Virus record (IMG/VR): IMGVR_UViG_3300033513_000009
Coordinates: 1-53,865 of that record
Strand: one strand, 5' to 3'
DNA from: a virus
Taxonomy: Duplodnaviria > Caudoviricetes
DNA length: 53,865 bases
Made by a program: the position numbers and the translations under genes. Position 1 is the first letter of the stretch. Every line of letters starts with the position of its first letter. Below the pieces are notes generated by a model that did not search any database, had not been told where the DNA came from, and saw nothing but the letters and a program-made list of their open reading frames with translations. Below are positions 677 to 50,200 of the stretch, piece by piece.

Positions 677-1105
677 TTAAGATTGGCTTGGGCGGTACAT
701 TGTTTCCATGAATTTATAGGTTTTGTTCTTGCCCTTATTCTCTATAAAATCAAATCGTTTATAGAATTCCTTTAATCTTGTTTTACTTCCTCCAAAATCA
801 GAAGAAGGAGAGAGCTTGACTGTATAGCCCATTTTGTCAGCATGTTCCACTAAATCTTCCATGAATTTAGTTCCAAGTCCCTTATTGCGTTCTTTCTTGG
901 GGATAATAATAGAGCTCAATGTAAGCATTTTGGTTGAATCATTTTGACCAATAAAAAAATCAATATTGGGATATTTGGCGGTAAGTATTTCATCAACCTG
1001 AGTTATATGGTCTTTACTAGCATTATCATTTCCTATCGGGGCTCCTTTTTGTAGTTCCGAAAGAGTATTAATTATTTTGTCAAGTTTTGCTATTAATAAT
1101 TCCAA
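677..1105 (-). CDS. GNAT-family acetyltransferase with shared leader
   Basis: Acetyl-CoA motif ERNKGLGTKFM and LKEFYKRFDF; N-terminus LDKIINTLSELQK-GAPIGNDNA. Confidence 0.8.
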   Translation of the reverse strand: MELLIAKLDKIINTLSELQKGAPIGNDNASKDHITQVDEILTAKYPNIDFFIGQNDSTKMLTLSSIIIPKKERNKGLGTKFMEDLVEHADKMGYTVKLSPSSDFGGSKTRLKEFYKRFDFIENKGKNKTYKFMETMYRPSQS

Positions 1106-1578
1106 AAAGATTTTCCACCGTCTGTACTGAATTTGATATTTTTAACTCCCAAATTTTCCAATACTTTTCTTTGACGATTCTTTAATTCATTTCTATCGCT
1201 TAATTCTGATGGTATGATACTTACCGCCCTTAAGCCATCAGAGGTTGCCCTAATAGAGAGATGCTGATATTTTCCCTTAAATTCGGAACTATTAGCTGTG
1301 AAATTAACCTCGTTTTCCCCATGTGTGCTGGATATTCCGCTTTTCCCTACATATACCGCATTGTGACCCATTAAACTAACAATAGTTGCTTTGTCAATAG
1401 GCTTCCCAATAATAGTACCTAATTTTTCTAGTGATTTTGAATCAATATTCTTGGTATTAACCACCTCACTTGCAATCACCGCTTCTTTCTTGGGATTTTT
1501 GCCACTACCAGCAGGATACCTGCCTGAACCTTCGCCGCCCTTTGCTAGTTCCAAATTATCTATTATTTTGTTTATCAT
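1093..1578 (-). CDS. Leader-bearing hypothetical (putative capsid cargo)
   Basis: MINKIIDNLELAK-GGEGSGRYPAGSG; overlaps neighbouring genes. Confidence 0.75.
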   Translation of the reverse strand: MINKIIDNLELAKGGEGSGRYPAGSGKNPKKEAVIASEVVNTKNIDSKSLEKLGTIIGKPIDKATIVSLMGHNAVYVGKSGISSTHGENEVNFTANSSEFKGKYQHLSIRATSDGLRAVSIIPSELSDRNELKNRQRKVLENLGVKNIKFSTDGGKSFWNY

Positions 1579-2318
1579 CTTGCTATCCCATAAAGTTCTT
1601 CTATCTTATCACTATCAACCCCATTTGCTTCGTAAAGCTGTTCAATCTCATCCCAGTTCTCATCCACATCATCCTGTAGTTCCGAATCGAATCTACACAT
1701 CCTAATTAATGTATCTATTTCTAGTTGCCCTGAAGCTATCTCATCTAACAAATCATCACCCGTATCAAATTTAGCAAGCATCCCAATTAATTTATTATTA
1801 GTTTCCTTGCGAGTATTATCATCCAAATTTTTGTTCTGCCATTTCAAAGCCTCAATTAGGTCTTTTTTGTCATTGGCATAGTTCTTTATTTTATCAAAAT
1901 TTCTATAAGTATCCCATTGTGTTAATAGGTCTTTTTTATCATTCCAGTCTTTTATATTTTTTAGTTTTGACTGAATATTATTGATTTCCTTGTTTACAAA
2001 TTCGGTAACATGTTTAATAGGGGCATTAGTGAATGCTAATTGCCCCATTTTTTTTGACCCATAGTTAGAAGCAAATGCTTGTTCTATTAATGAAGGTAAA
2101 CCACTTTGGTGAGCCATAACCCATTGATTACCATGGAAGGAATGACCCACTAAATCACCCTTATGAAGGAAGAAGATAATATCATCCAACTTCCTCATTT
2201 TGCGCGCTGAAGACAGGGCGATAGCGATAGCTTGCCTATGCGGATATTTTCCACTCCTCATAAGCTCTCTGATATTTTCAGAGATAACTTCCTTGCTACT
2301 ACCCTGTATCAACGGCAC
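1575..2318 (-). CDS. Putative head-associated protein with internal leader
   Basis: Phage-type N-terminus MPL..GSSKEVISENIRELM..QAIAIALS, then KLDDIIFFLHK-GDLVGHSFHGNQW. Confidence 0.7.
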   Translation of the reverse strand: MPLIQGSSKEVISENIRELMRSGKYPHRQAIAIALSSARKMRKLDDIIFFLHKGDLVGHSFHGNQWVMAHQSGLPSLIEQAFASNYGSKKMGQLAFTNAPIKHVTEFVNKEINNIQSKLKNIKDWNDKKDLLTQWDTYRNFDKIKNYANDKKDLIEALKWQNKNLDDNTRKETNNKLIGMLAKFDTGDDLLDEIASGQLEIDTLIRMCRFDSELQDDVDENWDEIEQLYEANGVDSDKIEELYGIAR

Positions 2319-3069: not shown

Positions 3070-3774
3070 TTAGTCTTGAATAGATAAAATATGTTGTTGT
3101 GAAAATGATTTCTTGCAAAAATCGTAGGGGTAGATTACATGACATCCGTCGTATTCGCCTTTCTCATTTGGAAGATAGAATTTTGTGGCATTCCCAAAAC
3201 TATCATTCATTACGAATCCAACATCATTATAACCTATGACCCCATTAACATGTACAATAGTATCGCTTGTTCCGTTCGGACGTTTTCTGAAATAAAATCC
3301 AGCAGTAATGACAGGTATGTTCTTATCTATGCTTGCTTTGATTTGTTCAAAATTCACACCCTGAGTAAATGTGTCTTTAAGACCCAATTTTTCAAGATAC
3401 CATTTTAGCACAAAGGGATTATTCCTTGGTTTAATACAATCCTGCTGTAGTTTTTCATTTGTATTAAATGGAGCTAAGTACAGTGTCCACTTTTTCAAGT
3501 CATCATCCGATAGGGATTTGATTCTATTTGCCACTATACTATCAGGCATAGTTATGAAATGAGTATTCCACGCCTCTCGTGTAGCCAATTGCTGTGACAC
3601 ATAATCATCTAGCTGACCCACTCCATCCCATCCACAAAATTTATGAATATCTAATTTGAAATATTCACAAATCCATTGAATCACCATGGCTATTGTAGTC
3701 GCTTGACAAGTACCGAAAGGAGCGTCTTCGTTGTTCCTTTGATTATGCCATACTGCATTTAATGCTTTTTCCAT
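3070..3774 (-). CDS. C39-like cysteine peptidase, candidate endolysin
   Basis: TCQATTIAM (Cys), HVNGVIGY (His), NDSFG (Asp); next to holin-like genes. Confidence 0.7.
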   Translation of the reverse strand: MEKALNAVWHNQRNNEDAPFGTCQATTIAMVIQWICEYFKLDIHKFCGWDGVGQLDDYVSQQLATREAWNTHFITMPDSIVANRIKSLSDDDLKKWTLYLAPFNTNEKLQQDCIKPRNNPFVLKWYLEKLGLKDTFTQGVNFEQIKASIDKNIPVITAGFYFRKRPNGTSDTIVHVNGVIGYNDVGFVMNDSFGNATKFYLPNEKGEYDGCHVIYPYDFCKKSFSQQHILSIQD

Positions 3775-4247
3775 TATGCCTTATTAAATACTACTTTCTT
3801 CCCTTGAATTAAATCATCTAAATGAGACCTTATCTGATAATGGGGGTCATGGTAAACATCTTCAAGTTTTTCTTTATCTTTTTTCTCATCATAGCTCGTG
3901 CGGGTAAATCCCGGAGCTTCCGTTAGTCCTGCTCCCTCGTTGCCTAAATCAGTAGAGTACCTTAAATCACTGTTTGAACTATGTTGCTCCATAATATCTG
4001 CCATAATCTCATCATGGGATTTGCCCGATTCCATTGCTTCCTTAGCTTCTTGGATTCCTTCTGGGCTGAGTTGTAATTCAACTCTATTGCCGTATTCGTG
4101 AACAGAGGCATTGTTACTATTCCAGCTTTGAACTGGTTTGTCACCCCTTGCTTCTTTCTTTGGATTTTTGCCACTACCGGCGGGATAGCGACCCGAACCT
4201 ACTCCACCCTTTGCTAGTTCCAAATCAGCTATTATCTTGTTTATCAT
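3774..4247 (-). CDS. Leader-bearing hypothetical (putative capsid cargo)
   Basis: MINKIIADLELAK-GGVGSGRYPAGSGKNPKKEA, nearly identical to the first 33 aa of 1093-1578, with an unrelated C-terminus. Confidence 0.75.
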   Translation of the reverse strand: MINKIIADLELAKGGVGSGRYPAGSGKNPKKEARGDKPVQSWNSNNASVHEYGNRVELQLSPEGIQEAKEAMESGKSHDEIMADIMEQHSSNSDLRYSTDLGNEGAGLTEAPGFTRTSYDEKKDKEKLEDVYHDPHYQIRSHLDDLIQGKKVVFNKA

Positions 4248-20058: not shown

Positions 20059-20492
20059 TATTTTTCTGACCTAAGTTTTGTTGCCCAGTGCTGCATAACA
20101 TGACCATGAGCCTCCTTGAATTTGGGAGTTGTTATTCTGCCCTCATCGGCATTCTGAATAGTCTCCCTGATTGTATCAAGTTTTTTAGCGGCTTCCTCTG
20201 GGCTATTAGCTTCTTTTATTGCTTTTGAAGCATGTTCGTAGGCATTCATCATCCCATTATGTACTTCCTGCGCTTCTTTATAGCTTTGTTGCAAGGAATG
20301 AGGCACGTTCTCCTCTCCATGAGCGGCTATCATGCTTGAATTAAGTGCAGACATTGATGCTGAATGTCTTTGAGAATGTCTCTTTGTTTCCTTGGTTAAT
20401 TCTTCTTTTCTTATACCCCAGTGCATACCCTTCTTGCCATATTTAGCTATGACACTATTGGCGTGTTCCAGCCTCTTCATTAAATTGCTCAT
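20058..20492 (-). CDS. Leader-bearing hypothetical (putative capsid cargo)
   Basis: KRLEHANSVIAK-YGKKGMHWGIRK. Confidence 0.7.
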   Translation of the reverse strand: MSNLMKRLEHANSVIAKYGKKGMHWGIRKEELTKETKRHSQRHSASMSALNSSMIAAHGEENVPHSLQQSYKEAQEVHNGMMNAYEHASKAIKEANSPEEAAKKLDTIRETIQNADEGRITTPKFKEAHGHVMQHWATKLRSEK

Positions 20493-20986
20493 TTCAAGCC
20501 CCCGTCTATTAATAACAATGCTGTGTTACCATCAGCTATTTTACACCTATCAACCAATTCTCTTGCATAAGCCATTTCTTCGACCTGTTCACTAATATAC
20601 CATTCCAATAGTACCATTGTAGCATAATCTCCTACTGTTTTGGCATTATCGTATAGGAAATAAATGTTAGAGGTGATTTTGTTTTCATGGTCGTAAGAAG
20701 CCTGAACGGTATCCACTATAGTCTCGATTGTGACATCAAGCGGTGGAACATCAAAAGTCACCACTACATTTCTATCATTTAGATATTTATAAAATTTATC
20801 CGCATGGACTTTTTCTTCACCAGCCTTATCTTCATAATATTTTGCGAATCCAATAAAGCCTTTGTTCCTAGCCCAAGAAGCCATATACAAATAAATAAAT
20901 GCACTTTGTAGTTCCAGATTCATTTGAACATTCAAGTTCTCGAATAACGAGCTCGAATCCACTAGGGCGTTTTCTGCTTTCTTCAT
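20489..20986 (-). CDS. ftn: Ferritin (non-heme, Ftn type)
   Basis: Ferroxidase residues: QMNLELQS, EEKVHA, HENKIT, EQVEE; 165 aa. Confidence 0.9.
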   Translation of the reverse strand: MKKAENALVDSSSLFENLNVQMNLELQSAFIYLYMASWARNKGFIGFAKYYEDKAGEEKVHADKFYKYLNDRNVVVTFDVPPLDVTIETIVDTVQASYDHENKITSNIYFLYDNAKTVGDYATMVLLEWYISEQVEEMAYARELVDRCKIADGNTALLLIDGGLK

Positions 20987-24219: not shown

Positions 24220-24567
24220 TTATGCTCCTTTCTTTTTCTTTGCTACTGGAGCCTCAGCGGTAGCCTCTTCCTCAGCAGGTGCTTCAGCGGGAGCCTCGGT
24301 AGGTATTTCCGCAGGAGCTTCAGCAACAACCTCAACAGGTGTTTCAACCTCAGCAGGTATCTCAACAGGAGCTTCGACTGCCACTTCAACAGGGGCTTCT
24401 ACTTTTTCAATAGCTTTATCATATTCATCCAAAACAATAGCGGCAGGGTCTACCCTCATGAAAACAGCGAGTGCTTCTTCTGGCATTTCTATAATACCAT
24501 GGCGATTCTCAAAGTTTCTTCCGTACTGGTCTACATGACTTGTTATATTTGTTTTTACTTTTACCAT
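24220..24567 (-). CDS. Small head-associated protein with A/E/P/V repeats
   Basis: VEAP/AEAP tetrapeptide repeats and basic tail; directly after the MCP. Confidence 0.65.
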   Translation of the reverse strand: MVKVKTNITSHVDQYGRNFENRHGIIEMPEEALAVFMRVDPAAIVLDEYDKAIEKVEAPVEVAVEAPVEIPAEVETPVEVVAEAPAEIPTEAPAEAPAEEEATAEAPVAKKKKGA

Positions 24568-24610: not shown

Positions 24611-26113
24611 CTATGCTCCGGGAGCTATGTTATAAATAACCATCATGCTAGGTGTGAAGTAGCAAGCTGGTGTAGCCTCTAACCTTATACCGAACTGGAA
24701 GGTAGGATTAACACGAGCATAATCTATCTCGTAGTACTCACGCCTTACTACCACTTCAATAGGATTAGCTAGGTCGGCAAGCTGGTAAGGAAGCCTTGTG
24801 CTGTAACCCAGAACTGTACCTTGTGGGATGTCAGGATGAACCTTGATGTCAATCTGCTGACCTGTCACAGGGTGAAGGACACCGATTACATAAGGAGAAC
24901 CAACGATACCAGCAGGATTAGCTTCAGTATTCTGACGAATAAGTGGGGCACCATTGTTTTTGATTATCAGGTTCCTGATTGTCTGAAGGTCAACTATGTT
25001 TACATAGATGCGGTCAACAGAGAGCTGATAGTTCTGATACATGGTAGCAAGAGCTGTATCTATTTCAGTGATACCGCCAGCACCGTTTGTTGTTAGTTTA
25101 GCTGCACCGTTGTTGCTAACATAAGAGTTAGAACCAGAAGCAAGAGCCTGATACAGAAGACCATCGTAACCATAAGCATTCTTGGAGTTATCAACAGTGA
25201 AGTTAGTAGCCGCCGCTTGTGTACCCGTAACTGGGTTAGCGAAAGTAGCTGTATTGTTTGAAGTAATACCATGTAGTACCTCGGAACCAGATGCACCAAT
25301 GAACCAAGCATAACCAGCAGCACCCTGTATAGCAGTTGTAGTAACTGTTACGCCGTGTATAGCGTCACCCGGAGTTACGGTACCAGCAGCAGATTTGATT
25401 GAAGAACCACCACCGTAGGTAAATGTATCACCCGGTTGACCACCTGTTAGAGCCTGTGGAACTACGTTAGCAGTTGTAGCAGGATAAACGTGACCATTTG
25501 TTGCACGAGCATTTGTCATACCTTGTGCTGTCAGAGCGACAACTATGCAAGACAGTGCTGATGCAGGGAATGTACCCGCCGTAGCCGCTGATGCAATAGT
25601 AGGAGTTACAGGAGTTCCGAGCGCTATTGTTGTAGCGTTACCAAAAACCACGTTCCTTTCCTCAATTTTCTTGAGCTGACCTATTGTAGCCAGTTTTGTT
25701 TTAGCAAGAACATCGTCAAAACCTGCGCCAGCGCTAACAGCTTCGAATGTTACGCTGTTGTCTACAGACAGTGTAGCGTAAGTGAAGGTTTTGCTATCTG
25801 ACTGGAATTGAAGGTCTGCGTTACGTTTACCCTCTGGAACACCACCTTGGTTAAAAGATGTGTCGTAGCTGGTTATCCTACGGATGGTTGTAGCAACACC
25901 CACCTGAGACCCGCCTGTACCAGCCATACGTCTTGGTAATTCGTTTATAACTGGGGTAACAACAGGAACAACGAGTTTAGCGCCTTCCTGAATGTCAACA
26001 CCGTAAAGACCAGCACTAGTACCAACCGATTTCTGGATGTCTGTTGAAGACTTAAACGCATTAATCGTGTCCTGTGTTACGTCTGATTGTAAAGTATAAA
26101 TACTATTTGTCAT
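24611..26113 (-). CDS. Major capsid protein
   Basis: 500 aa after the protease/scaffold; DIKVHPDIPQGT and YYEIDY C-terminal motifs; terminator downstream. Confidence 0.85.
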   Translation of the reverse strand: MTNSIYTLQSDVTQDTINAFKSSTDIQKSVGTSAGLYGVDIQEGAKLVVPVVTPVINELPRRMAGTGGSQVGVATTIRRITSYDTSFNQGGVPEGKRNADLQFQSDSKTFTYATLSVDNSVTFEAVSAGAGFDDVLAKTKLATIGQLKKIEERNVVFGNATTIALGTPVTPTIASAATAGTFPASALSCIVVALTAQGMTNARATNGHVYPATTANVVPQALTGGQPGDTFTYGGGSSIKSAAGTVTPGDAIHGVTVTTTAIQGAAGYAWFIGASGSEVLHGITSNNTATFANPVTGTQAAATNFTVDNSKNAYGYDGLLYQALASGSNSYVSNNGAAKLTTNGAGGITEIDTALATMYQNYQLSVDRIYVNIVDLQTIRNLIIKNNGAPLIRQNTEANPAGIVGSPYVIGVLHPVTGQQIDIKVHPDIPQGTVLGYSTRLPYQLADLANPIEVVVRREYYEIDYARVNPTFQFGIRLEATPACYFTPSMMVIYNIAPGA

Positions 26114-26125
26114 TTTTTCCTCTAA

Positions 26126-27631
26126 TTAATTTAAGCCTTTTGCAATTACATCCCTGAGCCTGAAACATTTCTCCCCAAGTTCCTGTTTGAGCATTGGATT
26201 TTGCTCCTTGTCAAACATCATCTTGGTGATTTCATATTCCTGCTCTACAGGAGATTTCTGCAATTCAACCATGCCACCATCCTTATCGAATGCCCTTGGA
26301 GCTGATTTAGCAACAGGGGAAGCAACGTTACTTTCGATTGCCTGTAGTCTTTTATTCATTTTCTCATCCAAATCCTTAACGAATTTAGCAAGGTCTATCG
26401 TAGCTTCAGCAACCTTGTTCACACTTTCCTGAACCTCTTCAGCCTTGGATACCGCCATTGCTGTCTTAGGTTTGATTACTGTACTTCCAGCAGAAGCCGC
26501 GTCCTGAGCAGCATTACTAACGCTTCTTTCTTTCCAAGCATTTATGCGCCCTTCACCAAAATACTTCTCCAGCTCTTCATCTGTCATATCCTCTTCGTCT
26601 TCAATTGGTTCAATATCCCTTGTTTCTTCGCCAGCTTTAAGATTTCTCTTAGCCCTGCCAGCGCCGAAAGATTTTGACATTTTGCCAGATTTGAGTTTGT
26701 ATTCGTTGCCCTCAACACCCATCTCGCCTTTTCTCATAGACTTAATAACAACAAAATCCTCGTCGTCCATAACGCCCATATCATCCTCATCCATATCATG
26801 ACCACCGCAATTAGCGCCCATGCCACATGCCTCATCGTGTATGATTTGGATTTTGTCAGCATAAGCTTTGGCAAGAGCATCACTCTTATGTACCAGTTCA
26901 CCATCTAGTCCCAGTGATTCTGATAGCGCTAGAAGGTAATCTACCTTAGTAACATCTTCATCCTCTGGTAAGCTAATATGACCAGCGGCAGTAGCAGCAC
27001 CAATTAACCCAAAAGCAGAGTTAATCAGGGGCTGTATATCACCTTTGGTTATATTTCCAGAGTCCATTCCTTCAGCAATAGCATCAAGGCTCTCAGCTAC
27101 TACTGCAAAGCTTTCAGCTTTTAGAATATCATCCATATTTTCCTCACCTGTATATAATTTAAAAATTGGTAATAGTGTAGCTTCAGGATTAGCACCCCTA
27201 TCAACTAACGATATTTCAGTTAGAAGTAGTTTTGTAATCGTGTTACCTACTTTCTCTAGTCTTTTACCGCCGATACTGTAGCCCGTAAACATGCCCATTT
27301 TGACCTTGTTTATAGCAGCGGGGTCAACGATAAAACTACCCACAAACAATCCCTTATCATCCATCAGCCATTTAATAGCTTTTCCAATTAAAGAAAACGG
27401 ATTGTGCATTTCTTTAATTGAAGGAGTTTTGATGTAGTCAGGAAGGGCATCCTCAATAGCTTTTTTTGCTACTTTTTCACCCTGCCTATCTAGTGTCTCG
27501 GTACTTGCATATCCTTCGACATACACCCCCTTAACACCATCAACCTCCATTTCCTTCCATACCTTCCCACCGTCAAATTTTCGTAGTTCTACGTCAAACT
27601 TAAACATAGCGGTATCCGCAAATTTCATCAT
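26126..27631 (-). CDS. Prohead protease (HK97-type) fused to scaffold
   Basis: VEGYAST..DRQGE, EMH, GYSIGG, EISLVDRGANPEA; acidic/helical C-terminal half. Confidence 0.9.
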   Translation of the reverse strand: MMKFADTAMFKFDVELRKFDGGKVWKEMEVDGVKGVYVEGYASTETLDRQGEKVAKKAIEDALPDYIKTPSIKEMHNPFSLIGKAIKWLMDDKGLFVGSFIVDPAAINKVKMGMFTGYSIGGKRLEKVGNTITKLLLTEISLVDRGANPEATLLPIFKLYTGEENMDDILKAESFAVVAESLDAIAEGMDSGNITKGDIQPLINSAFGLIGAATAAGHISLPEDEDVTKVDYLLALSESLGLDGELVHKSDALAKAYADKIQIIHDEACGMGANCGGHDMDEDDMGVMDDEDFVVIKSMRKGEMGVEGNEYKLKSGKMSKSFGAGRAKRNLKAGEETRDIEPIEDEEDMTDEELEKYFGEGRINAWKERSVSNAAQDAASAGSTVIKPKTAMAVSKAEEVQESVNKVAEATIDLAKFVKDLDEKMNKRLQAIESNVASPVAKSAPRAFDKDGGMVELQKSPVEQEYEITKMMFDKEQNPMLKQELGEKCFRLRDVIAKGLN

Positions 27632-28092
27632 TTTCTCACACCTCGTTTGGAAGCTTCTCCCATAAATTCCTTCTCGTGTCCGGTCTTTCCACCTTGATGA
27701 ACATGTGCCATACGAGCCCAGAATTGTCGTGACTTAGGTTTTTCCTTAGCCCACTTTCCAGTAGGATGTTTTTCCCTATGTAGAGCAGTAAGAGCAGCGA
27801 CAGTAGCTCCTATTTGTTTTTGAGCCTCCTTGTGTGCTGTTCCCTTTTCTTCTCTTGACAATCTATCTAGGTTGATTAATCGCTTAAGATGCTCCCTAAG
27901 AGCTCTTTCACCCCTGCGCTTTAATGCCTCATGAACCTGTTGGCGTTTCATACCAGTCATCTTAGTATGACCACCACCCGGCGCACTTCCACCCCAATGT
28001 CCCGGAACTCCAGCATGACCGTAATTTCCAGAAGAAGCCGTCCCTATTTTGAAAAGATTTTTCACCTCGTTCTCCATATGACTTCGTATCAT
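27628..28092 (-). CDS. Leader-bearing basic protein (putative capsid cargo)
   Basis: EVKNLFK-IGTASSGNYGHAGVPGHWGGSAPGG; between portal and protease. Confidence 0.7.
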   Translation of the reverse strand: MIRSHMENEVKNLFKIGTASSGNYGHAGVPGHWGGSAPGGGHTKMTGMKRQQVHEALKRRGERALREHLKRLINLDRLSREEKGTAHKEAQKQIGATVAALTALHREKHPTGKWAKEKPKSRQFWARMAHVHQGGKTGHEKEFMGEASKRGVRK

Positions 28093-28502: not shown

Positions 28503-29231
28503 TTACCCCACGTAAAACTTTTTCTCTCTTAGATAATTCTTCAAAACTTGAAGTGATTTTGAACCCTCATTCAAATCAAACTTCCCCTCAAAATCGGAGC
28601 CGTTTTTCTTCCACCAGTCACGCCCTTCTTTTGATGACATGATTTCATGAATATCATTCTTTCCTTCAAAACCCTTGGCACCTTCCTTATATGTAGGAAG
28701 TTTTTCAACATTATTATAACCAAGCCTAGCCCACGTATAATAACCATTGGCATCAGCACCCCTTCCTGCCATTGTGACTATCCTATCTACACCCATTTTC
28801 TTAGCATTAAGTACCTGATTAGCAAATACCCTTGTTCCGAATCCTTCTGGAGCACTATTATCTTTATAGAAAGATTTATTCTCAAGAACAATTTTTCCAT
28901 CTATCTTATACAATAACCTCTGTTGCACACCATCAAAATAAGGATGAGTAGCAACAAAACCTATTACCCCGCGAGAGCCCTCTAGTTTAATGGTAGTTCC
29001 TGAAGGAGCACCAATAAGACCAGCTATTTCCTCTTTATTTGGTTTCCTGCCAAATATCTCGTTCATAGCGTCTTCAACACCCTTCGCTTCTTCACTTGGT
29101 ATTTGTAGCTTTATGTTGCGATTATCAAAGAGCTCATGACCTGCATTATCGGTGTACTGATTACCATGAAAAGGATGACCTTCGAAGTCACCCTTTGCTA
29201 GTTCCAAGTTAAGTATTATTCTATCTATCAA
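28503..29231 (-). CDS. Leader-bearing GNAT-like protein
   Basis: MIDRIILNLELAK-GDFEGHPFHGNQY; GFGTRVF and NGYYTWARLGY GNAT-like motifs. Confidence 0.7.
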   Translation of the reverse strand: MIDRIILNLELAKGDFEGHPFHGNQYTDNAGHELFDNRNIKLQIPSEEAKGVEDAMNEIFGRKPNKEEIAGLIGAPSGTTIKLEGSRGVIGFVATHPYFDGVQQRLLYKIDGKIVLENKSFYKDNSAPEGFGTRVFANQVLNAKKMGVDRIVTMAGRGADANGYYTWARLGYNNVEKLPTYKEGAKGFEGKNDIHEIMSSKEGRDWWKKNGSDFEGKFDLNEGSKSLQVLKNYLREKKFYVG

Positions 29232-30940: not shown

Positions 30941-33900
30941 TTAAATCTTAGCCTCTTCATTATTTTCCCTTTCTGCCTCTTTTTGGGTATTATAGAAGGT
31001 TGACCACATGCGAACACTGCCTAGATTAAAGAAATTTAAGGCTTGTGATAGGGAATCACAGTTGGAAACTAGTATATTATTGGCGAAATACACATGCTCT
31101 TTATCTACTGTTAGATTGTACACGTTTTCTCCAGTTTGCCCAATTGAACTTAGCGGTACAAGATTTGCTACAGGTTCGTTTTGTTTGCTTGGGATTTTCC
31201 TTCCGTATGGTTTTGAAGGTTGTCCCGCAATATTCACATTGTAATTCGATGTCATACATTCCCGTAGATTCCCTGTGCTTTCTCCCACATTGTGGTCGGC
31301 AATATTTGGGATTGTAATAGGAAGCCAAGAATTCTTTTTTACACCACAGGCATTCATGTTTCGATTGTTCTCGTTTTCCAAAGGAATGATTTTTGGCATG
31401 TTGGCGATGCCATTCCTTTCCTGCTTCTGATTTATGCCATTCCTTTGCGTCTTCCCTAATTTTTGCCAAATGCTCAATTTGTTTTTCTTTATCCTTAACA
31501 GGATGTTGCCTACGGTGTTCCCTAACTGATATACATTCCAGATTAGAGAAGTCGTTATTAAACCAATCCCCATCCTTATGGTGAATGTGATAGCCTTTTG
31601 GAACTGCTTGCCCTGCATAAAATTCCCAAATTGCAACATGAAGTCCTTTAGCACATCTTCTTCCTGCATTGGTTTTTGACTGGCTAAGATAATATCTTCC
31701 CGCCCCCATGAGGGTATATTTTGTTCCATTGAATATAATATTTTTCTGTATTTCCATCTCAAAAGCTCTCCCCAATTTAATTGTTTTGTTTCTTCAATTG
31801 TTACCTTTCCTAAATCCCTAAAACCATCCTTCGTGAAAACTGGATGATTTGGGGTTCCTGTTAATCCAATATTCGAAACTACATTATGTTTTCCCGTATA
31901 ACCACAAGTTAATACTCTACAAATTCCCGAAGGAGTGATAACCCAATCGTTTTTTGTGATTTCCTCGATAGGTTTGTTTCCGAACAATGTAGCTATTTGG
32001 GTTCCAGCCACGAAACAAATATCATCATTCTTATGTGTTCCCGCTGGCGAAAAGGCTAAGTGTTCCTCAATAATATCCACTGTCCACGCCTTGTCAGAAG
32101 GTACGTAGACCTGAGAGCCCCTGTAATAGCCGATTACTGTACTCACCCTATAGAGTTTATCAGGAGCTCCCTTAAATCCCCCTCCCTCTGCCTGAATATT
32201 GGTTGCCATTGGAATAGAAAGACCCGATTCTCGTAATTCCTGAATAAGCTGATGTCCACTTGACCTATCCTCTATAATAATATTAGTAGGCTGGTATTTA
32301 GCATTAAGGAGCAAGAGATTTTGTTTTAATTCATGGTATTGAACCTTCTCTCTGAACATATCCACGACATAATAATGACCCTTTGCTGTTAATCCCATTA
32401 CGAGGAGCACGCTATAATCATTATGCTGACCCGTTTTTACCGCCGTGTCGCATGAGATTATCAAGTCATCAAAGGCAGGGGTCTCGGAACTATCATAAAA
32501 CTGAAAATCATCCCTGTTAAATACCGCTCCATCAAGAGGGTTGGGAACCTGCATATACTGAGCGGCAAATCCAAAAGCCATATTTCTTTTAATGCGTTCA
32601 ACCTCTTCGGCAGGAAACCTTTCACCCCAGAATAAATCACCATCTTTTGCATATCCCTCAATCACTACCCCTTCTGGTAATTTGACTATACGTTCATCGT
32701 AAGTTATAGGAAGGACAATACCGTCATATTGGTCTTTTATTTGAGCTATGATGTCATCTTCATGGAGCCTCTGCATTATCAACCAACGACTTCCAATAGT
32801 TTGCGAGTTAAGACGAGAATAAAGAGTTACATTAAACCATTCATTAGCTGAATTTAGTTTCGTTATACTACTAGCATCTTGAGGTTTGAGGTAGTCGTCG
32901 ATTATTATGCAATTGTGGACGAGTATTTCATTTGCAAAGAAGTTGTGATTTCCTTCCACTTGGATGTCATAGACCCTGACCCCTCTATCGCGTATTGGGA
33001 CAACCATTTGTACGGTGTCTCCATCGAATGATGATGAATTGTATGACATATTAAGCAAATTGCCACCAAGTTCTCCGCCACATTGTTCTTCGGATTTTCG
33101 TCTATATGGTGAATTATCATATTGGAATGTCTCATCTTTCCATACCTGTTCCTTTTTATCGAAAAGGTTTGAGGTTTGTGACAAACTACACAGGCTTCCT
33201 TCTCCCTTTCCAATATCAAGGGGCGCATCTCGTAAAACCATTTGGAGTAACTTCTTCCCTCCTTGTAATGAGAATTCCCAGTTCCAATCATTCTCTTTGA
33301 ATGAGCCTTGTTTTTGCATATCATCGAGCAATACATACTTCTTGTACTCTTCCCCATAAATTCTTTTTGACAAAAGTGACAATTGATTTGCTTCAATTTT
33401 TTCCTGCTCTTGGGCGATTTCAGACGACATTCTATCGAACAAAATCTCATCGTCTTTTTGGGTACCATACTCGAACATATCTCGCATTTTCGACGATTTT
33501 TGAAAGAATGATGTTTTTCCGAGCATGTTGCGGAGCAATAAAAATCCTTTCGTCCCTTCTTTATTGATTTTTCCACATTGAACTTGCTTCTCCTGAATTC
33601 CTTGTGACACAGGGAGCATTCCAGTACGAATACAATCTTCCTCGCTTTTTGATAACATGTCCAACATATTGTTCTGCCTTCCGATTTTTTCCCCTGACAT
33701 ATTGGGCACCCCTCCGTTGCTGATAATAAGCTTATCTCCGTTCCCAAGAAGTTGTGCTTGTGTATATCCAAATCCTGTTGTGTATATACGATGTTTTCCC
33801 GTAGCCCTGATATAACGCCCTTTATTTGTGGTGATTTCATGAATATCATTGCTAACTGAAACCTTCGTTGCAACAATATTTCTCCATTCTGTTTGTTCTG

Positions 33901-34501
33901 TCTCATGATTATATGATAATACTCTTGGCATTTCCTTTAAATTTACTATCTCCTCAATAGTCATATTTCCCCATTCAGTAGCAATCATTGTCTCCCCCAC
34001 CAGACAATCAGCACCTGAGCCGGTTATTGCCGCAGCAGTCGAGGTAGCGATACGTTCTCCACCCTGATTGTTGAAGAACTTAACCTTTTCGTTCTGAGCG
34101 CCGTGTAGTTGGTAAATCTCCCCAAACCATCTCTGGTATTTCTCACTCTGGATAATAACCCTAGATTTGACCGAAAGCTCGTTTGCTAGTGTATCGGTGT
34201 GAGAGGCTACAATGAATTTCAAATATGGATAATGTACCCACGCCCATCCAACCGACATGATTGAAAATATATAAGATTTCATACAACGGGGAGGGATATT
34301 CACATAATGGTCGCGGGTTTTTGGTAGTCTCTGCCCAACCCTGAGAATATCTTTTTGAAATTCATCGCATAGGACTTTGATATGCCAGTTATCCGAAAGA
34401 GGTGTACCCGGTTCCAGTACTTCCCAAAATTCCTTTATAAAATGATAATAACTGCGACGAGCTCTTTCACGTCGTACCAACTCATTAGGCGGTATAAACA
34501 T
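30941..34501 (-). CDS. terL: Terminase large subunit with two inteins (about 502 aa after splicing)
   Basis: NIPPRCMKS Walker A; spliced GAD-CIIIDD Walker B; MQRLHEDD; SCDTA, IEDRSSG and DDI-CDS nuclease motifs. Confidence 0.95.
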   Translation of the reverse strand: MFIPPNELVRRERARRSYYHFIKEFWEVLEPGTPLSDNWHIKVLCDEFQKDILRVGQRLPKTRDHYVNIPPRCMKSYIFSIMSVGWAWVHYPYLKFIVASHTDTLANELSVKSRVIIQSEKYQRWFGEIYQLHGAQNEKVKFFNNQGGERIATSTAAAITGSGADCLVGETMIATEWGNMTIEEIVNLKEMPRVLSYNHETEQTEWRNIVATKVSVSNDIHEITTNKGRYIRATGKHRIYTTGFGYTQAQLLGNGDKLIISNGGVPNMSGEKIGRQNNMLDMLSKSEEDCIRTGMLPVSQGIQEKQVQCGKINKEGTKGFLLLRNMLGKTSFFQKSSKMRDMFEYGTQKDDEILFDRMSSEIAQEQEKIEANQLSLLSKRIYGEEYKKYVLLDDMQKQGSFKENDWNWEFSLQGGKKLLQMVLRDAPLDIGKGEGSLCSLSQTSNLFDKKEQVWKDETFQYDNSPYRRKSEEQCGGELGGNLLNMSYNSSSFDGDTVQMVVPIRDRGVRVYDIQVEGNHNFFANEILVHNCIIIDDYLKPQDASSITKLNSANEWFNVTLYSRLNSQTIGSRWLIMQRLHEDDIIAQIKDQYDGIVLPITYDERIVKLPEGVVIEGYAKDGDLFWGERFPAEEVERIKRNMAFGFAAQYMQVPNPLDGAVFNRDDFQFYDSSETPAFDDLIISCDTAVKTGQHNDYSVLLVMGLTAKGHYYVVDMFREKVQYHELKQNLLLLNAKYQPTNIIIEDRSSGHQLIQELRESGLSIPMATNIQAEGGGFKGAPDKLYRVSTVIGYYRGSQVYVPSDKAWTVDIIEEHLAFSPAGTHKNDDICFVAGTQIATLFGNKPIEEITKNDWVITPSGICRVLTCGYTGKHNVVSNIGLTGTPNHPVFTKDGFRDLGKVTIEETKQLNWGELLRWKYRKILYSMEQNIPSWGREDIILASQKPMQEEDVLKDFMLQFGNFMQGKQFQKAITFTIRMGIGLITTSLIWNVYQLGNTVGNILLRIKKNKLSIWQKLGKTQRNGINQKQERNGIANMPKIIPLENENNRNMNACGVKKNSWLPITIPNIADHNVGESTGNLRECMTSNYNVNIAGQPSKPYGRKIPSKQNEPVANLVPLSSIGQTGENVYNLTVDKEHVYFANNILVSNCDSLSQALNFFNLGSVRMWSTFYNTQKEAERENNEEAKI
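31061..32017 (-). mobile_element. Intein 2 in the TerL nuclease domain (319 aa)
   Basis: Starts CFVAGTQIAT, block B TPNHPVF, ends YNLTV..HVYFANNILVSN|C. Confidence 0.9.
31101..31757 (-). CDS. HNH homing endonuclease in an alternate frame inside intein 2
   Basis: LHVAIWE..HIHHKDGDWFNNDFSNLECI..H plus CxxC fingers; GGGGAGAG RBS 8 nt before ATG 31757. Confidence 0.85.
   Translation of the reverse strand: MEIQKNIIFNGTKYTLMGAGRYYLSQSKTNAGRRCAKGLHVAIWEFYAGQAVPKGYHIHHKDGDWFNNDFSNLECISVREHRRQHPVKDKEKQIEHLAKIREDAKEWHKSEAGKEWHRQHAKNHSFGKREQSKHECLWCKKEFLASYYNPKYCRPQCGRKHRESTGMYDIELQCEYCGTTFKTIRKENPKQTKRTCSKSCTAKFNWANWRKRVQSNSR
32905..33906 (-). CDS. Zinc-finger HNH homing endonuclease in an alternate frame inside intein 1 (start uncertain)
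   Basis: Multiple CxxC/YCSxxC repeats then CVVC..IHHIDENPKNNVAENLVAICLICH. Confidence 0.85.
   Translation of the reverse strand: MRQNKQNGEILLQRRFQLAMIFMKSPQIKGVISGLRENIVYTQQDLDIHKHNFLGTEISLLSATEGCPICQGKKSEGRTICWTCYQKARKIVFVLECSLCHKEFRRSKFNVEKSIKKGRKDFYCSATCSEKHHSFKNRRKCEICSSMVPKKTMRFCSIECRLKSPKSRKKLKQINCHFCQKEFMGKSTRSMYCSMICKNKAHSKRMIGTGNSHYKEGRSYSKWFYEMRPLILEREKEACVVCHKPQTFSIKRNRYGKMRHSNMIIHHIDENPKNNVAENLVAICLICHTIHHHSMETPYKWLSQYAIEGSGSMTSKWKEITTSLQMKYSSTIA
32912..34006 (-). mobile_element. Intein 1 at the TerL Walker B (365 aa)
   Basis: Starts CLVGETMIAT, block B ATGKHRIYT, ends VYDIQVEGNHNFFANEILVHN|C. Confidence 0.93.
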
Positions 34502-43581: not shown

Positions 43582-43864
43582 TGATTTTTTGTAACTTTTC
43601 TATTTTGGTACTATTAATATCATAATATGCAAGAGTTTGTCTTGCCCATGCCCATTGACCGCGTAAAAGTGAGCGCAATGCAGGTGATACCGTTGCATAT
43701 AGTATAAGGTTATCTATAGGAACTTCGTTACCCCCAATAAGCATGGGAAATGTTTCCACTATTCTATCTAAATATGCTCTTAGTTTTGATTCATCTATAG
43801 GCTCATTTTTCCTATTGAAATAGAGTATTCCTAATTCTCGTCCGATTTTATTACTATAGTCCAC
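43568..43864 (-). CDS. Small protein coupled downstream of a zincin gene
   Basis: Overlaps the stop of 43854-45377. Confidence 0.55.
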   Translation of the reverse strand: MDYSNKIGRELGILYFNRKNEPIDESKLRAYLDRIVETFPMLIGGNEVPIDNLILYATVSPALRSLLRGQWAWARQTLAYYDINSTKIEKLQKIINNP

Positions 43865-45377
43865 TGTATTCTCCTAGAAATTCTTTTTGATAGTCTGTTA
43901 ATTTTTTATTAGTAAGGTGTGCCTGAACAAAACTTTCAGCAAAAAATTCATACTTATTAGTCATTCCGAACTTGCTTGGAATATCGTTCTGAACTTTTTC
44001 GTAACCAAAACCAAGCAAGGAGCCACCCGCCTTATTACTAATGGATTGCGCAAAGGCATCAAATCCCCTGTCATCTTTTCTCAAGTCCCTATAACTATAA
44101 GCATGACCCATTTCATGAGCGATAACATGTTGCATTGGTGCTGAATCTGTTTTTATCAAGTCAGACATTCCTAATCCACCCATCTGGTCATAAACAAAAG
44201 CTCTTTTATTAAAGATAATCTTTGCTGTCCCATCGGCATAGGGTTGGTAAATTGCCCCCGCATCACTTTTACCACCCAAGTCCTTTGTTGTAATATGAGT
44301 TAGTCCTTTTGGCATTCCGAATTTATCATGGAGGGCAAACAATGTTTCATTTATTTGATGTACCTGCTCCAATGTGGGAATATCCCCATAGTTCACCTTT
44401 ATGCCTAGCTTTTTTGTCGCCATCTTGCTTGCTTCGGCAACAGTAGTAGCTTCCCTTGGTAAACTCCCACCTCTTTCCCCCTGACGTCCCTTATGACCCT
44501 TGAAGGATTTTGCTAGTTCCAAATCAGATATTATTTTGTTTATTCCATAATCATGGTGGTCTAAATGATATTTGGTTTTATCAACAACAGGAATGCCCTT
44601 CTTATCGGCTTCAGCTTTTAGCTCTTTATAGGTCTCGTCATCAACTATTTTTCGGTCAACTTGAATATTCTTGATGTACTTATCGGCATTTTCCAGACCA
44701 TTATTGCCACCAATTTTAAGCTCCTCTTCGCCAGCAAATGTTCCAAGAAATTTATCTCCCACCTTGACTTTATGACCGTCTTCTTTTATTTTGCCCAAAT
44801 CTAAGTCAATACGCACACCTTTATCAGCGAAGGTATAAGGCTTGTTGCCCTCTCCGTACCACTGAACAGTTGCTATATCTGGGTGGTCAAAATCGGGATT
44901 AGTTGTTGTCGATAATCCAGATACCTCACCCTCCCCATAAAGTTGATTTTCCTGTAAAATATTAATTGCAGAAGAAGGGTCAGTAAAGTGATATGTTTTG
45001 GGGGCATTTTCGTCACCTCCCATAGCAAAGGGGTTGGGTTGTTTATTAAGAATCTCTAAATTACGGGATAATTCTTTAAATGATTTATCATCCCTAGCGT
45101 GAAGTTCGTTAAATCTGGTTGTCAGTTCTTCTTCAGAGATTTTGTCTCGTTCCGCTTTTAATTTATCCCAACCTTCCGATGATTTGATGTCATGGGCTTG
45201 TTTTAAAGCGCCCCTAAGTCGAAGAATATCTTGTGGTTTTAGGGTGCCACCATCTTTAACATAATCCATGTATTTTTGATGATTTTCCATGGTGATTCCT
45301 TTTGTCCACTGGTTTCCGTGAAATTCGTGACCTTCCTTGTCACCCTTCCTTAAGTTGTAAATTATTTTATCGAGCAT
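43854..45377 (-). CDS. Two-module leader polyprotein: ART-like domain plus zincin
   Basis: LDKIIYNLRK-GDKEGHEFHGNQW; YHFT/LSTT/GEEE; internal INKIISDLELAK-SFKGHKGR; HEMGH, EFFAESF. Confidence 0.75.
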   Translation of the reverse strand: MLDKIIYNLRKGDKEGHEFHGNQWTKGITMENHQKYMDYVKDGGTLKPQDILRLRGALKQAHDIKSSEGWDKLKAERDKISEEELTTRFNELHARDDKSFKELSRNLEILNKQPNPFAMGGDENAPKTYHFTDPSSAINILQENQLYGEGEVSGLSTTTNPDFDHPDIATVQWYGEGNKPYTFADKGVRIDLDLGKIKEDGHKVKVGDKFLGTFAGEEELKIGGNNGLENADKYIKNIQVDRKIVDDETYKELKAEADKKGIPVVDKTKYHLDHHDYGINKIISDLELAKSFKGHKGRQGERGGSLPREATTVAEASKMATKKLGIKVNYGDIPTLEQVHQINETLFALHDKFGMPKGLTHITTKDLGGKSDAGAIYQPYADGTAKIIFNKRAFVYDQMGGLGMSDLIKTDSAPMQHVIAHEMGHAYSYRDLRKDDRGFDAFAQSISNKAGGSLLGFGYEKVQNDIPSKFGMTNKYEFFAESFVQAHLTNKKLTDYQKEFLGEYSGL

Positions 45378-45579
45378 ATTCTTGTAGATACGAGGAAAAT
45401 TTAACACCCTTTCTTATGAGGTTTTTGATTATACGCCCATATTTAACTGGGTCAATAGATACTCGAATAGTCAGCAACTCTTCTATGCCATAACCATTTC
45501 TATAGTTCTGATAAAGACCCTCAATCATATCTTGTTCCGACATTTCATCATCTATTAATATGTATTCCATTATTTCCAT
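45367..45579 (-). CDS. Small protein coupled downstream of a zincin gene
   Basis: 70 aa with acidic N-terminus; overlaps both neighbours. Confidence 0.55.
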   Translation of the reverse strand: MEIMEYILIDDEMSEQDMIEGLYQNYRNGYGIEELLTIRVSIDPVKYGRIIKNLIRKGVKFSSYLQEYAR

Positions 45580-46349
45580 TTGGTTATCCTTTCCAACATT
45601 GTTTTTTGAAGTTCGCTGATTTTCATTCCGGTATGAGCTTGCACAAATGATTCAGCGACAAATTCATCGGAATCTTGCATTGCATATATGCTTGGAACAT
45701 CTGCTCTTTTTTTATATACTTGTGGTGTGAGTTCACCCTCTTCATTTTCAAGCCTATCCCTAAAAGCCCAAAAGTCATGATGATTAGGGTCATTATAATA
45801 GATACGTGTATTCCCTTCTTTATCCTTCCTCTGCCCAAAATGCTCTAGTCGATAATTGAAATCATAAGCATGTCCCAATTCATGAAGTGTAGAGACCTTG
45901 ACTTGACTAGCCCCAAGGGGCATTACCGTCATGTCCCCGAATATTTTATCCATTTGCTCAAAGGTTGAATTTCTTTCTATGCACTTTGAATTAATGACCA
46001 CTTTCCCCAAAAATGGAACACCTTTTGTTACTGCCTCAAGGGGATTACTCCTAAAAGCTCCTTGTACCCCAAAATCCATTTCCTCTACAACAAATTCTTT
46101 CAGACCATCAGGCTTCCCATATTTTGAAAAAATGTCTGACATAGTTCCTATTGCATGATTCAATCCTTCTATATTTGTTTTATTAGGGATGGTTGCTTTC
46201 ATCCCTAATTTCTTTTCAATAAATACGCGGGCTTCCTTTACATTTTTGGCTCCAGTAAAACCACTGATGTATTGATTGCCATGGAATGGATGACCCTTGA
46301 AATCACCCTTCCTTAAGTTGTAAATTATTTTATCTAGTTTTATTAGCAT
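45570..46349 (-). CDS. Leader-bearing zincin metallopeptidase
   Basis: KLDKIIYNLRK-GDFKGHPFHGNQY; HELGH; PSIYA..EFVAESF. Confidence 0.8.
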   Translation of the reverse strand: MLIKLDKIIYNLRKGDFKGHPFHGNQYISGFTGAKNVKEARVFIEKKLGMKATIPNKTNIEGLNHAIGTMSDIFSKYGKPDGLKEFVVEEMDFGVQGAFRSNPLEAVTKGVPFLGKVVINSKCIERNSTFEQMDKIFGDMTVMPLGASQVKVSTLHELGHAYDFNYRLEHFGQRKDKEGNTRIYYNDPNHHDFWAFRDRLENEEGELTPQVYKKRADVPSIYAMQDSDEFVAESFVQAHTGMKISELQKTMLERITKWK

Positions 46350-47480: not shown

Positions 47481-47921
47481 TTATGCCTCATAATCACCAT
47501 CATATCTATGACCTTGTTGATTAGCAGTATCCTTTAATTGACTATGGAGAGGAGTACCGTGATAAGCATCAATAAATTTATCAACATTCCTGCTTAATGT
47601 ATGCTTGAATTGATTTCCATCCCTACCTTCCTTGTATTTAATAACCATATCCTTAATAGCCTCATGTGGAGTCGCGTCCCCCATTTTAACTTCATTAGCT
47701 GTTTTTTCGGCATAGGTATGACCAGCCTCCGTTTCCAATGAAGCATTGTATGTAGTTGGTCTTAGGTCTTCATTCTTAAGTCTATTAGATACCGTTGCTC
47801 TCTTCTCCCCAAAATGCGCACTAAGTGAATGAGCTATTTGCCTATATTGATTCCCGTGAAACTCATGACCTTCTTTGTCACCTTTTGCTAGTTCTAATTT
47901 ATCTATTATTTTATTTATCAT
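47481..47921 (-). CDS. Leader-bearing hypothetical (putative capsid cargo)
   Basis: MINKIIDKLELAK-GDKEGHEFHGNQY; own TTGACA(47963-58)-17-TATAAT(47940-35). Confidence 0.75.
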   Translation of the reverse strand: MINKIIDKLELAKGDKEGHEFHGNQYRQIAHSLSAHFGEKRATVSNRLKNEDLRPTTYNASLETEAGHTYAEKTANEVKMGDATPHEAIKDMVIKYKEGRDGNQFKHTLSRNVDKFIDAYHGTPLHSQLKDTANQQGHRYDGDYEA

Positions 47922-49627: not shown

Positions 49628-50200
49628 TTACTGTATCTCTGAAAGCCTATCCAATCCTTCTTGGTCAAATAGTCTAGTTATACCTTTGTGCTCTTTTAGA
49701 ACGGCTTTATATTCCCTCATGGCTTCTTTGTTGGGACGACCATAATCATCATATTTGTCGTGGTTATAGTTCTCGGCATAATCCTCGAAAGAACCGGGGT
49801 CAGAAACAGACATAGATATTGAGCTCAAAATGTCATAAGTCGAAGGTTTCTCTCCCTTATTGGTAGCATTTATACTATTTCCCCAGTTAAAAGAATAGGA
49901 ATCTCCATCTTTGTTTTTTAGGGTAACTTTATACACATCTCTAGTGACACCCTTCTTCTTATCACTCGGAAAGTGTGACTTATTGCCCATGTGCAAGACA
50001 TGGAGAGAAGCTCCTGTATCATTCAGGAATCGTTGTGCATGTGTGTGATATTCATTTGAAGGGTCATGTTTTAATTCAACTTTTCCTCCACCATTTCCAG
50101 TGTATTGATTGCCCCTGAATGGATGTCCCTTTCTCTCACCGGAGCCAGCTCCGCCTTTTAGTATTTCGATAACTCTATTTAGTTTTTGTAATTTGTTCAT
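49628..50200 (-). CDS. Leader-bearing hypothetical (putative capsid cargo)
   Basis: KLNRVIEILK-GGAGSGERKGHPFRGNQY; GAGG RBS before ATG 50200. Confidence 0.75.
   Translation of the reverse strand: MNKLQKLNRVIEILKGGAGSGERKGHPFRGNQYTGNGGGKVELKHDPSNEYHTHAQRFLNDTGASLHVLHMGNKSHFPSDKKKGVTRDVYKVTLKNKDGDSYSFNWGNSINATNKGEKPSTYDILSSISMSVSDPGSFEDYAENYNHDKYDDYGRPNKEAMREYKAVLKEHKGITRLFDQEGLDRLSEIQ

Follow-up and report, generated by a model that had tools for sequence, protein, structure and literature searches.

A candidate aliphatic-x-lysine cleavage code common to the scaffold, capsid propeptide and leader-bearing proteins of a tailed virus

Introduction

The nearest described counterparts of the locus analysed here, the late gene module of IMG/VR virus record IMGVR_UViG_3300033513_000009 (Duplodnaviria; Caudoviricetes; the whole 53,865-base record is referred to as the window), are found in HK97, T5, T4 and the phiKZ/SPN3US group. 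In HK97, the scaffold is the 102-residue delta domain of the capsid protein gp5 itself (NC_002167), in which F-N-K103 is followed by S104, the mature PDB chains cover residues 104-385, and further sites lie in the delta domain (I-Q-K↓A, L-T-K↓S and L-I-K↓S; the arrow marks the presumed cut, with P3-P2-P1 before it and P1' after it). The mature chain of T5, of 299 residues, implies a cut after H-L-K159 and before A160, at the end of a 159-aa (amino acid) delta domain. In phiKZ and SPN3US, many head and ejection proteins are cut at one short motif; the prohead protease recognises A/S/G-x-E. In T4, short N-terminal leaders on several scattered genes, the capsid-targeting sequences, end in the cleavage motif. 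The T4 protease gp21 prefers I/L-x-E, according to a passage of PMC12991175. Polyvalent proteins, which are giant and built of many modules, are believed to enter the head, to be delivered along with the DNA and to be processed into units; the main text of PMC5512222 (Iyer et al., 2017) proposes embedded metallopeptidase domains as the processing enzymes, and the string 'GNQ' is absent from that main text. For the head proteins of the P1 Dar system, no common leader is reported to have been found.

The window encodes a 501-aa protein in which an S78 prohead serine protease of the HK97 type is joined to a helical scaffold. We find that the triplet aliphatic-x-Lys is concentrated in this scaffold and recurs near the N-terminus of the capsid protein and at the end of short leaders on a set of other proteins. 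The best-supported reading, to which we give a probability of about 0.72, is that this triplet is a cleavage code common to the scaffold, the capsid propeptide and the leaders of cargo proteins. An earlier reading of the window made from its letters alone (the sequence-only reading) had proposed that hydrophobic-x-K is the site of the protease and that cargo leaders are clipped at it. Both proposals are now supported by four lines of evidence, all from sequence comparison: the enrichment is specific to Lys, confined to the protease/scaffold protein and common to its homologues; the capsid site I/L-x-K↓S/A/T is kept in 113-114 of 120 homologues, with a mature body poor in the motif; the leader junction recurs in giant polyproteins and in S78 open reading frames (ORFs), with P1 constant per protein and variable between proteins; and in one related locus, L128, the scaffold, junction and capsid sites all carry Asn, not Lys.

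Compared with the described systems, the locus would be a Lys-coded counterpart of T4 gp21 with its I/L-x-E motif and capsid-targeting leaders. The likeness lies in a three-residue code with an aliphatic P3, in sites crowded in the scaffold or core with one near the capsid N-terminus, and in leaders on scattered genes; the parts are not homologous. The differences are P1 (Glu in T4, Lys here), the protease (T4 family there, S78 fused to the scaffold here) and the Gly-rich modules (GHxFxGNQ, GGxGSG) that follow the leaders here and are absent in T4. HK97 gp4 belongs to the same Pfam family as the window protease, and the HK97 capsid protein is cut after Lys, as the sequence-only reading stated, with Ser next. 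In the window, by contrast, protease and scaffold form one protein, and the proposed propeptide has 28 aa; no cargo leaders are known for HK97. The T5 protein pair pb11/pb8 has a related protease domain and an implied cut after Lys and before Ala, and differs in having His at P3 and Leu at P2. phiKZ and SPN3US differ in protease lineage, P1 residue and P3 preference. The polyvalent and P1 Dar proteins resemble the junction polyproteins described below in being giant multi-module proteins that would be split into units. In the literature within reach, which did not extend to subscription journals and supplements, we found no description of the GNQ junction and no consensus motif for S78 enzymes, single sites only being given (HK97, P1 and TLS).

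Results

Identity of the protease/scaffold and capsid proteins

The features on which the analysis centres are the following.

26126-27631, minus strand: protease/scaffold protein, 501 aa, Peptidase_S78
27176..27559, minus strand: S78 prohead serine protease domain, residues 25-152 of the 501-aa protein
27404-27406 and 27275-27277, minus strand: presumed catalytic His76 and Ser119, invariant in homologues
26126..27169, minus strand: scaffold-like C-terminal extension, residues 155-501 and stop, mostly helical
24611-26113, minus strand: major capsid protein, 500 aa, HK97 fold
26030..26113, minus strand: proposed capsid propeptide, residues 1-28, ending I-Q-K28 with Ser29 next, from homologue conservation
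24611..26029, minus strand: proposed mature major capsid protein, residues 29-500 and stop, HK97 fold

The first protein matches PF04586 at residues 34-152 (E 1.5e-5; 25.7 bits against a curated cut-off of 21), phrog_80 ('head maturation protease', 2.6e-12) and also phrog_21715. His76 and Ser119 are invariant in 40 homologues and, from work on HK97, we take them to be the catalytic pair; His76 aligns with the HK97 gp4 His that precedes K66, presumably the catalytic His65. The AlphaFold2 (AF2) model is confident over residues 25-143 and continues as a disordered linker and a mostly helical tail, with helices at 166-191, 196-215, 229-239, 245-269, 290-303, 351-380, 391-435 and 461-500 (predicted local distance difference test, pLDDT, 67.7; predicted TM-score, pTM, 0.35). 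In cultured phages, the closest relatives of the protease domain include T5-like proteases (34% identity). The S78 gene is placed between the portal and major capsid genes, an order that is identical in 58 of 80 related loci.

The capsid protein has no Pfam family, and its profile has no match among PDB sequences. It does match phrog_13692 (1e-85), and Foldseek relates its AF2 model (pLDDT 78.9) to the capsids of SU10 (7z46, 1e-12), SPO1 (9vel) and HK97 (1ohg, 2.8e-7). Because of the Peptidase_S78 match and the HK97-type capsid fold, the names protease/scaffold and major capsid protein, which the sequence-only reading had assigned with the right coordinates, are correct. Going by its sequence signatures, the S78 protein would digest the capsid protein, the scaffold and itself in the prohead.

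A Lys motif is enriched in the scaffold

We defined a strict motif, [ILVM]-x-K-[AGS], and a loose one, [ILVMFA]xK[AGSYF]. Expected counts were calculated from composition, significance was obtained from 100,000 shuffles, and 60 ORFs of the window were tested. All 13 sites quoted by the sequence-only reading are present in the protease/scaffold (K171, K196, K249, K255, K297, K301, K320, K356, K396, K416, K442, K459 and K498), and its total of about 20 depends on the definition, as there are 12 strict sites, 18 loose sites and 29 of 52 Lys with I/L/V/M at P3. The 12 strict motifs compare with 3.09 expected, a count reached by 2 of 100,000 shuffles, and the scaffold part alone (residues 155-501) has 11 against 1.96, a count that none of the 100,000 shuffles attains. 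The extension contains 20 [ILVM]xK sites, and cutting at every such triplet would leave no fragment longer than 42 aa in the whole protein.

The pattern is specific to Lys. An aliphatic residue stands at P3 of 0.56 of the Lys in the protein (29/52) versus a background of 0.25, compared with 0.14 at Arg, 0.20 at Gln, 0.24 at Glu and 0.36 at Asp. Since these residues lack the P3 excess of Lys, a general effect of amphipathic helices does not explain it. The helical tape-measure protein (972 aa), a coiled control, shows no excess (7 vs 6.07 expected), and one other ORF among the 60 reaches p<=0.05 (52607-52975; 3 vs 0.56). The protease/scaffold is thus enriched well beyond chance against composition-matched shuffles, the kind of control that the sequence-only reading had named.

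The same signature is found in homologues. Our set comprised the best 120 of 203 database relatives, which share the protease domain alone with the window protein (query coverage 23-67%). Among 2,932 Lys in the C-terminal extensions of 119 of them, P3 is aliphatic in 0.44 (background 0.205) and P1' is small in 0.42 (background 0.28); Arg, Glu, Asp and Gln are at background. The strict motif occurs 645 times in 120 proteins, the window protein included, versus 166.9 expected, is above expectation in 115 and individually significant in 71. After greedy clustering at 40% identity, the 65 representatives hold 408 motifs against 100.1 expected, with 64 of the 65 above expectation. In a second set, taken from 80 IMG/VR loci gathered by capsid alignment (a search from the single protease/scaffold sequence found nothing), P3 and P1' features are combined at 0.256 of the Lys of 48 non-identical extensions versus 0.057 expected; in 732 control ORFs of at least 250 aa from the same loci, the figures are 0.078 and 0.062.

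The capsid site is conserved and the mature part is depleted

Of the two capsid sites named by the sequence-only reading, I-Q-K↓S (K28) fits the motif, and A-F-K↓S (K21) is present as a weaker site upstream, its F standing at P2 and not at P3. By count the capsid protein is not enriched (1 vs 0.88 expected), but the I-Q-K↓S site is kept in homologues. Among 120 capsid homologues of 34-41% identity, 114 have I/L/V/M in the column aligned to I26, 113 have K in that of K28 and 114 have S/A/T in that of S29; several of the departures are alignment slips with a Lys nearby. The segment before the site is poorly conserved and varies from 0 to 77 aa (median 25), and a strongly conserved block starts at the site itself. 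In the model, pLDDT is low at residues 1-12 and 24-45, on either side of a helix at 14-23.

Downstream of the site the motif is rare: the mature parts of the 120 homologues contain 57 strict motifs versus 119.7 +/- 10.3 expected, and 0 of 200 shuffles are as low, in a test that treats related sequences as independent. A conserved site at the boundary together with avoidance elsewhere in the capsid protein is the pattern expected of a substrate that has to survive the protease.

Between its spine helix and A-domain, the capsid model also has a large additional region rich in beta structure (residues ~172-300). With it the protein reaches about 500 aa, where mature capsid proteins of the HK97 fold typically have 280-350 aa.

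Nine proteins carry leaders that end in the motif

Eight proteins of the window have a related leader of 11-15 aa, N-terminal except for one internal case, which ends in L-A-K (four), L-R-K (two), I-L-K or L-H-K (one each). In all eight the next residue is Gly, which opens either GDxxGHxFHGNQ(Y/W) or GGxGSG. A ninth protein has L-F-K followed by a degenerate Gly-rich module. The genes are listed below.

28503..29231, minus strand: next to the portal gene; 13-aa leader (29193-29231) ending L-A-K, then GDxxGHxFHGNQY
27628..28092, minus strand: the ninth protein, just upstream of the protease; 15-aa leader (28048-28092) ending L-F-K, then GNYGHAGVPGxWGGS
1093..1578, minus strand: leader (1540-1578) ending L-A-K, then GGxGSG
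3774..4247, minus strand: leader (4209-4247) ending L-A-K, then GGxGSG
1575..2318, minus strand: internal leader (2160-2198) ending L-H-K, then GDxxGHxFHGNQW
43854..45377, minus strand: start taken at Met 45377; leader (45345-45377) ending L-R-K, then GDxxGHxFHGNQW
45570..46349, minus strand: leader (46308-46349) ending L-R-K, then GDxxGHxFHGNQY
47481..47921, minus strand: start taken at Met 47921; leader (47883-47921) ending L-A-K, then GDxxGHxFHGNQY
49628..50200, minus strand: start taken at Met 50200; leader (50156-50200) ending I-L-K, then GGxGSG and GHxFRGNQY

From the adopted start codons the leader proteins measure 146-507 aa. None has a Pfam domain at E<=0.001, and 28503-29231 matches no Pfam or PHROG family; phrog_4273 matches residues 57-198 of 49628-50200. 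The module of 27628-28092 is comparable to the GSGNFGHxGRPGxVGGS junctions of the polyproteins described below.

In 1575-2318, residues 1-43 match phrog_2423, a family of 52 aa (E 8e-16), and the leader with its junction comes after them in the same frame. Either the gene joins a small protein to the front of a cargo protein, or translation really begins at the internal Met (2198).

The leader junction recurs in giant polyproteins

A profile of the window leaders was searched against 1.84 billion representatives and gave 839 matching proteins, the best 150 of which were examined. Most are giant proteins, the longest of 3,461 aa, and the profile matches 2-9 stretches in each. Of 551 junction sites, 333 have K immediately before the Gly (P1) and 343 have V/L/I at P3; P2 and the positions further upstream are free to vary. 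At least three junctions (3-9 per protein) are found in 125 of these 150 proteins, all metagenomic polyproteins, and within each of the 125 P1 is nearly constant while differing among proteins: K in 83, L in 23, A in 9, F in 5, E and R in 2 each and S in 1. The L class is made of two sub-patterns, one with L/A mixed after R/K at P3 and one with L after an aliphatic P3. Pairs of sites from the same protein share P1 at a rate of 0.815 versus 0.42 after shuffling (maximum 0.476 in 1000 shuffles). Junctions of the GGxGSG type keep the P1 class of the other junctions in the same protein, which argues that the class is a property of the phage, as opposed to a single repeated linker. The window's leader proteins share with these polyproteins the junction motif only, and not the many effector domains that characterise polyvalent proteins.

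In two sequences (L086:5974-9975, minus strand, and G006:C1:24732-25202), an ORF of 1333-1337 aa opens with an S78 domain, and the rest is a polyprotein in which V-x-K↓GD junctions occur, so that a head protease can be the first module of a giant cargo protein.

An E-class locus (L083:1535-6557) encodes a 291-aa protein next to MuF and a 1038-aa polyprotein, with junctions of the form V/L-x-E before GD. The polyprotein has 13 hxE[AGS] against 5.4 expected; among the 8 ORFs scanned no protease was recognised, and a 241-aa ORF before the capsid gene is without any hxE.

Scaffold, junction and capsid sites change together in one locus

Scanning with a DNA pattern for the junction gave 120 viral contig stretches, and 111 loci could be assigned a class. 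By our profile, an S78 ORF is present in 14 of them, with junction P1 of K in 12, R in one and N in one, and in 10 of 13 S78 ORFs examined a junction lies within the protease/scaffold ORF itself. The Lys motif is enriched (p<=0.053) in 9 of 11 K-class S78 ORFs; elsewhere in K-class loci, Peptidase_S78_2 occurs in two more ORFs with strong Lys enrichment.

The N-class locus among these, L128, has a true homologue of the window protease (hhalign probability 98.7%, with His and Ser aligned). Its S78 ORF holds 9 [IV]xN[AGS] sites versus 1.1 expected and shows no excess of the Lys motif (1 vs 1.8); one of the Asn sites directly follows the protease domain, near the Lys of the K-type consensus. The junction reads I-Q-N↓GD. 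The capsid protein encoded downstream, 27.5% identical to that of the window, shows V-Q-N↓A in the alignment exactly where the window protein has I-Q-K↓S. P1 has thus changed in three kinds of substrate along with one enzyme, which suggests that the specificity of the protease evolves and that all its substrates follow. If so, L128 would be a clean system for the study of enzyme-substrate co-evolution.

An hxN-rich ORF in another locus (L185) was considered as an S78 homologue and ruled out (hhalign probability 0.35%).

Discussion

The proposed maturation pathway

The motif statistics, their conservation and their covariation among phages are observed; we infer that the bond is cut after Lys, that the S78 domain is the cutter and that the head packages the leader proteins. 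The recognition motif would require an aliphatic P3, Lys at P1 and a small P1' (S/A/G, with T in capsid homologues), and would leave P2 free. Inside the prohead, the protease would cut its own scaffold tail at about 11-20 sites, giving short peptides able to exit the shell, and would remove capsid residues 1-28 to leave Ser29 as the mature N-terminus. It would also clip the 11-15-aa leaders of the nine proteins encoded across the genome, exposing Gly-rich N-termini (GDxxGHxFxGNQ or GGxGSG).

Several observations weigh against this pathway. The homologues are mutually related, as the capsid depletion test ignores, and single-linkage clustering at 30% collapses 171 extensions to 8 groups, with 26 motifs versus 10.1 expected and 3 of the 8 individually significant. 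Motif counts show no enrichment in the capsid protein (1 vs 0.88) and no significant one in the DUF6582 ORF described below (3 vs 1.42). In the leader of 27628-28092, P1' is Ile. The correspondence between junction class and protease is weak across loci. The motif matching the junction class is the highest in 28/75 K loci, 3/6 N and 1/6 D, and in 1/10 R-x-L/A, 1/10 h-x-L, 0/2 F, 0/1 E and 0/1 R loci, support being limited to the K and N classes and one D locus and the R-x-L/A, h-x-L, F and E classes being at chance over the 111 loci, in a scan in which many loci are short fragments and spurious ORFs are included; strong mismatched signals occur at L085, L140 and L141. An S78 ORF accompanies 12/75 K-class and 2/36 other loci, a difference that is not significant (Fisher p=0.14). 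In underpowered searches of whole contigs, all but two of them incomplete and most of the IMG/VR contigs used being 37-69% complete, S78 relatives were found in 2/5 of the K class and 0/5 of the others with our own alignment, the Pfam S78 model being too insensitive (0/5 and one weak match in 5). Lastly, the junction family is nearly absent beside the closest capsid relatives, with a single GNQ site in the 80 loci, located inside the L040 protease/scaffold, and the link to cargo therefore rests on more distant phages.

Alternative explanations

The alternative that survives best, although we consider it unlikely, accepts that the sites are cut and assigns the cargo junctions to another agent (a host protease, another phage peptidase or self-cleavage by the GHxFxGNQ module), leaving the S78 enzyme to handle the scaffold and the capsid protein only. 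Staphylococcal phage 80alpha uses a host protease for such leaders. Such an agent would fit the conservation of the side following the cut (G-D/G...GHxFxGNQ) in all P1 classes, including those without a matching scaffold signal, and the lack of a recognisable protease among the ORFs scanned in the E-class locus L083. It would have to explain, however, why P3 and P1 are constant within a phage even across junction types, why they match the scaffold and capsid sites both in the window and in L128, and why junctions stand inside the S78 ORFs themselves in 10/13 cases.

Somewhat less probable still is that the motif is a structural or assembly feature of the scaffold family, either a pattern on the surface of helices or lysines that contact the capsid interior or DNA, in which case the conserved I-x-K of the capsid protein would be a mere part of the N-arm. 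Six of the 11 strict scaffold sites lie inside predicted helices, in a model of low confidence, so that a structural cause keeps some probability and this placement counts against cleavage. Moreover, the scaffolds are homologous and may have inherited their common motifs, and the capsid residues right after K28 are conserved as well. Against this stand the restriction of the pattern to Lys as opposed to Arg or Glu, its lack in the tape-measure protein and the 732 control ORFs, and the depletion of the mature capsid body. The same triplet also terminates unrelated leaders and polyprotein junctions, and all three contexts switch to Asn jointly in L128. Chance or composition, which a motif so short and degenerate might invite, is hardly credible in view of the shuffles (2/100,000 reach the count for the whole protein, 0/100,000 for the scaffold part) and of the replicated excess in two further sequence sets.

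A possible general junction code

If the aliphatic-x-Lys cleavage code is correct, it may be one instance of a wider one. We propose tentatively, and with rather less confidence than the reading for the window itself, that tailed phages use a general junction code readable from sequence, in which P3-x-P1↓G-(D/G) plus a Gly-rich module divides packaged proteins and polyproteins, P3 and P1 co-evolve with the phage's own prohead protease, and the same code marks the scaffold and the capsid propeptide. The junction classes seen are K, N, D, E, L/A after R/K, and F. Should this hold, one could read from a genome what the protease recognises, where mature proteins begin and end and which cargo is packaged, and the leader could serve as a portable tag to load foreign proteins into capsids. 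S78 prohead proteases are very common among tailed phages. A three-position code common to scaffold, propeptide and leaders would predict mature ends and head-packaged proteins from metagenomes. It would also account for the splitting of giant polyvalent proteins into working units, and would predict which phage proteases are able to trip protease-sensing host defences such as CBASS (PMC12991175).

The DUF6582 protein and other features of the window

The late genes of the record are all on the minus strand. Their order is terminase, portal, the small ORFs 28503-29231 and 27628-28092, protease/scaffold, capsid, and then connector, tail and tape-measure genes. No close relative was found among cultured phages, the best capsid match being 35% (Brevundimonas phages) and the protease domain at most 35% identical. 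Further features are given below.

30941-34501, minus strand: large terminase with inteins, 1186 aa
29221-30663, minus strand: portal, PF04860
22304..23146, minus strand: DUF6582 protein, acidic (PF20223, E 4e-28), with strict sites K91, K261 and K269

In the DUF6582 protein, the two sites quoted by the sequence-only reading, L-A-K↓A (K91) and I-R-K↓G (K269), are present together with a further one, M-A-K↓S (K261), but the enrichment is not significant (p=0.15). DUF6582 is free-standing in the window and is fused elsewhere to S78 (19/118 homologues) or to Mu-like_Pro, PF10123 (14/118). Because these are two unrelated families of prohead proteases, DUF6582 looks like a module associated with the prohead core or scaffold, and the window protein is possibly an extra component of the prohead core. 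The Lys signature is found in the DUF6582 proteins fused to S78 (0.090 vs 0.050) and not in those fused to the Mu-like protease (0.060 vs 0.052).

Directly after the capsid gene, a 115-aa ORF (24220-24567, minus strand) that matches no family has a long repetitive tail rich in Ala, Pro, Glu and Val, with KKKKGA at its end; its product may serve for decoration or as a linker. A ferritin-like gene (20489-20986, minus strand; PF00210, E 2e-31) lies amid the structural module, between genes for a Big_5-domain protein and for a small ORF with a weak DUF7211 match. In the terminase, residues 179-530 match Intein_splicing (E 2e-20), and another match of low strength, to Hint, begins at residue 828. 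Nested in this second intein region, in another frame of the same strand, is a 224-aa ORF with an HNH_3 endonuclease domain (31101-31775, minus strand; E 3.5e-13).

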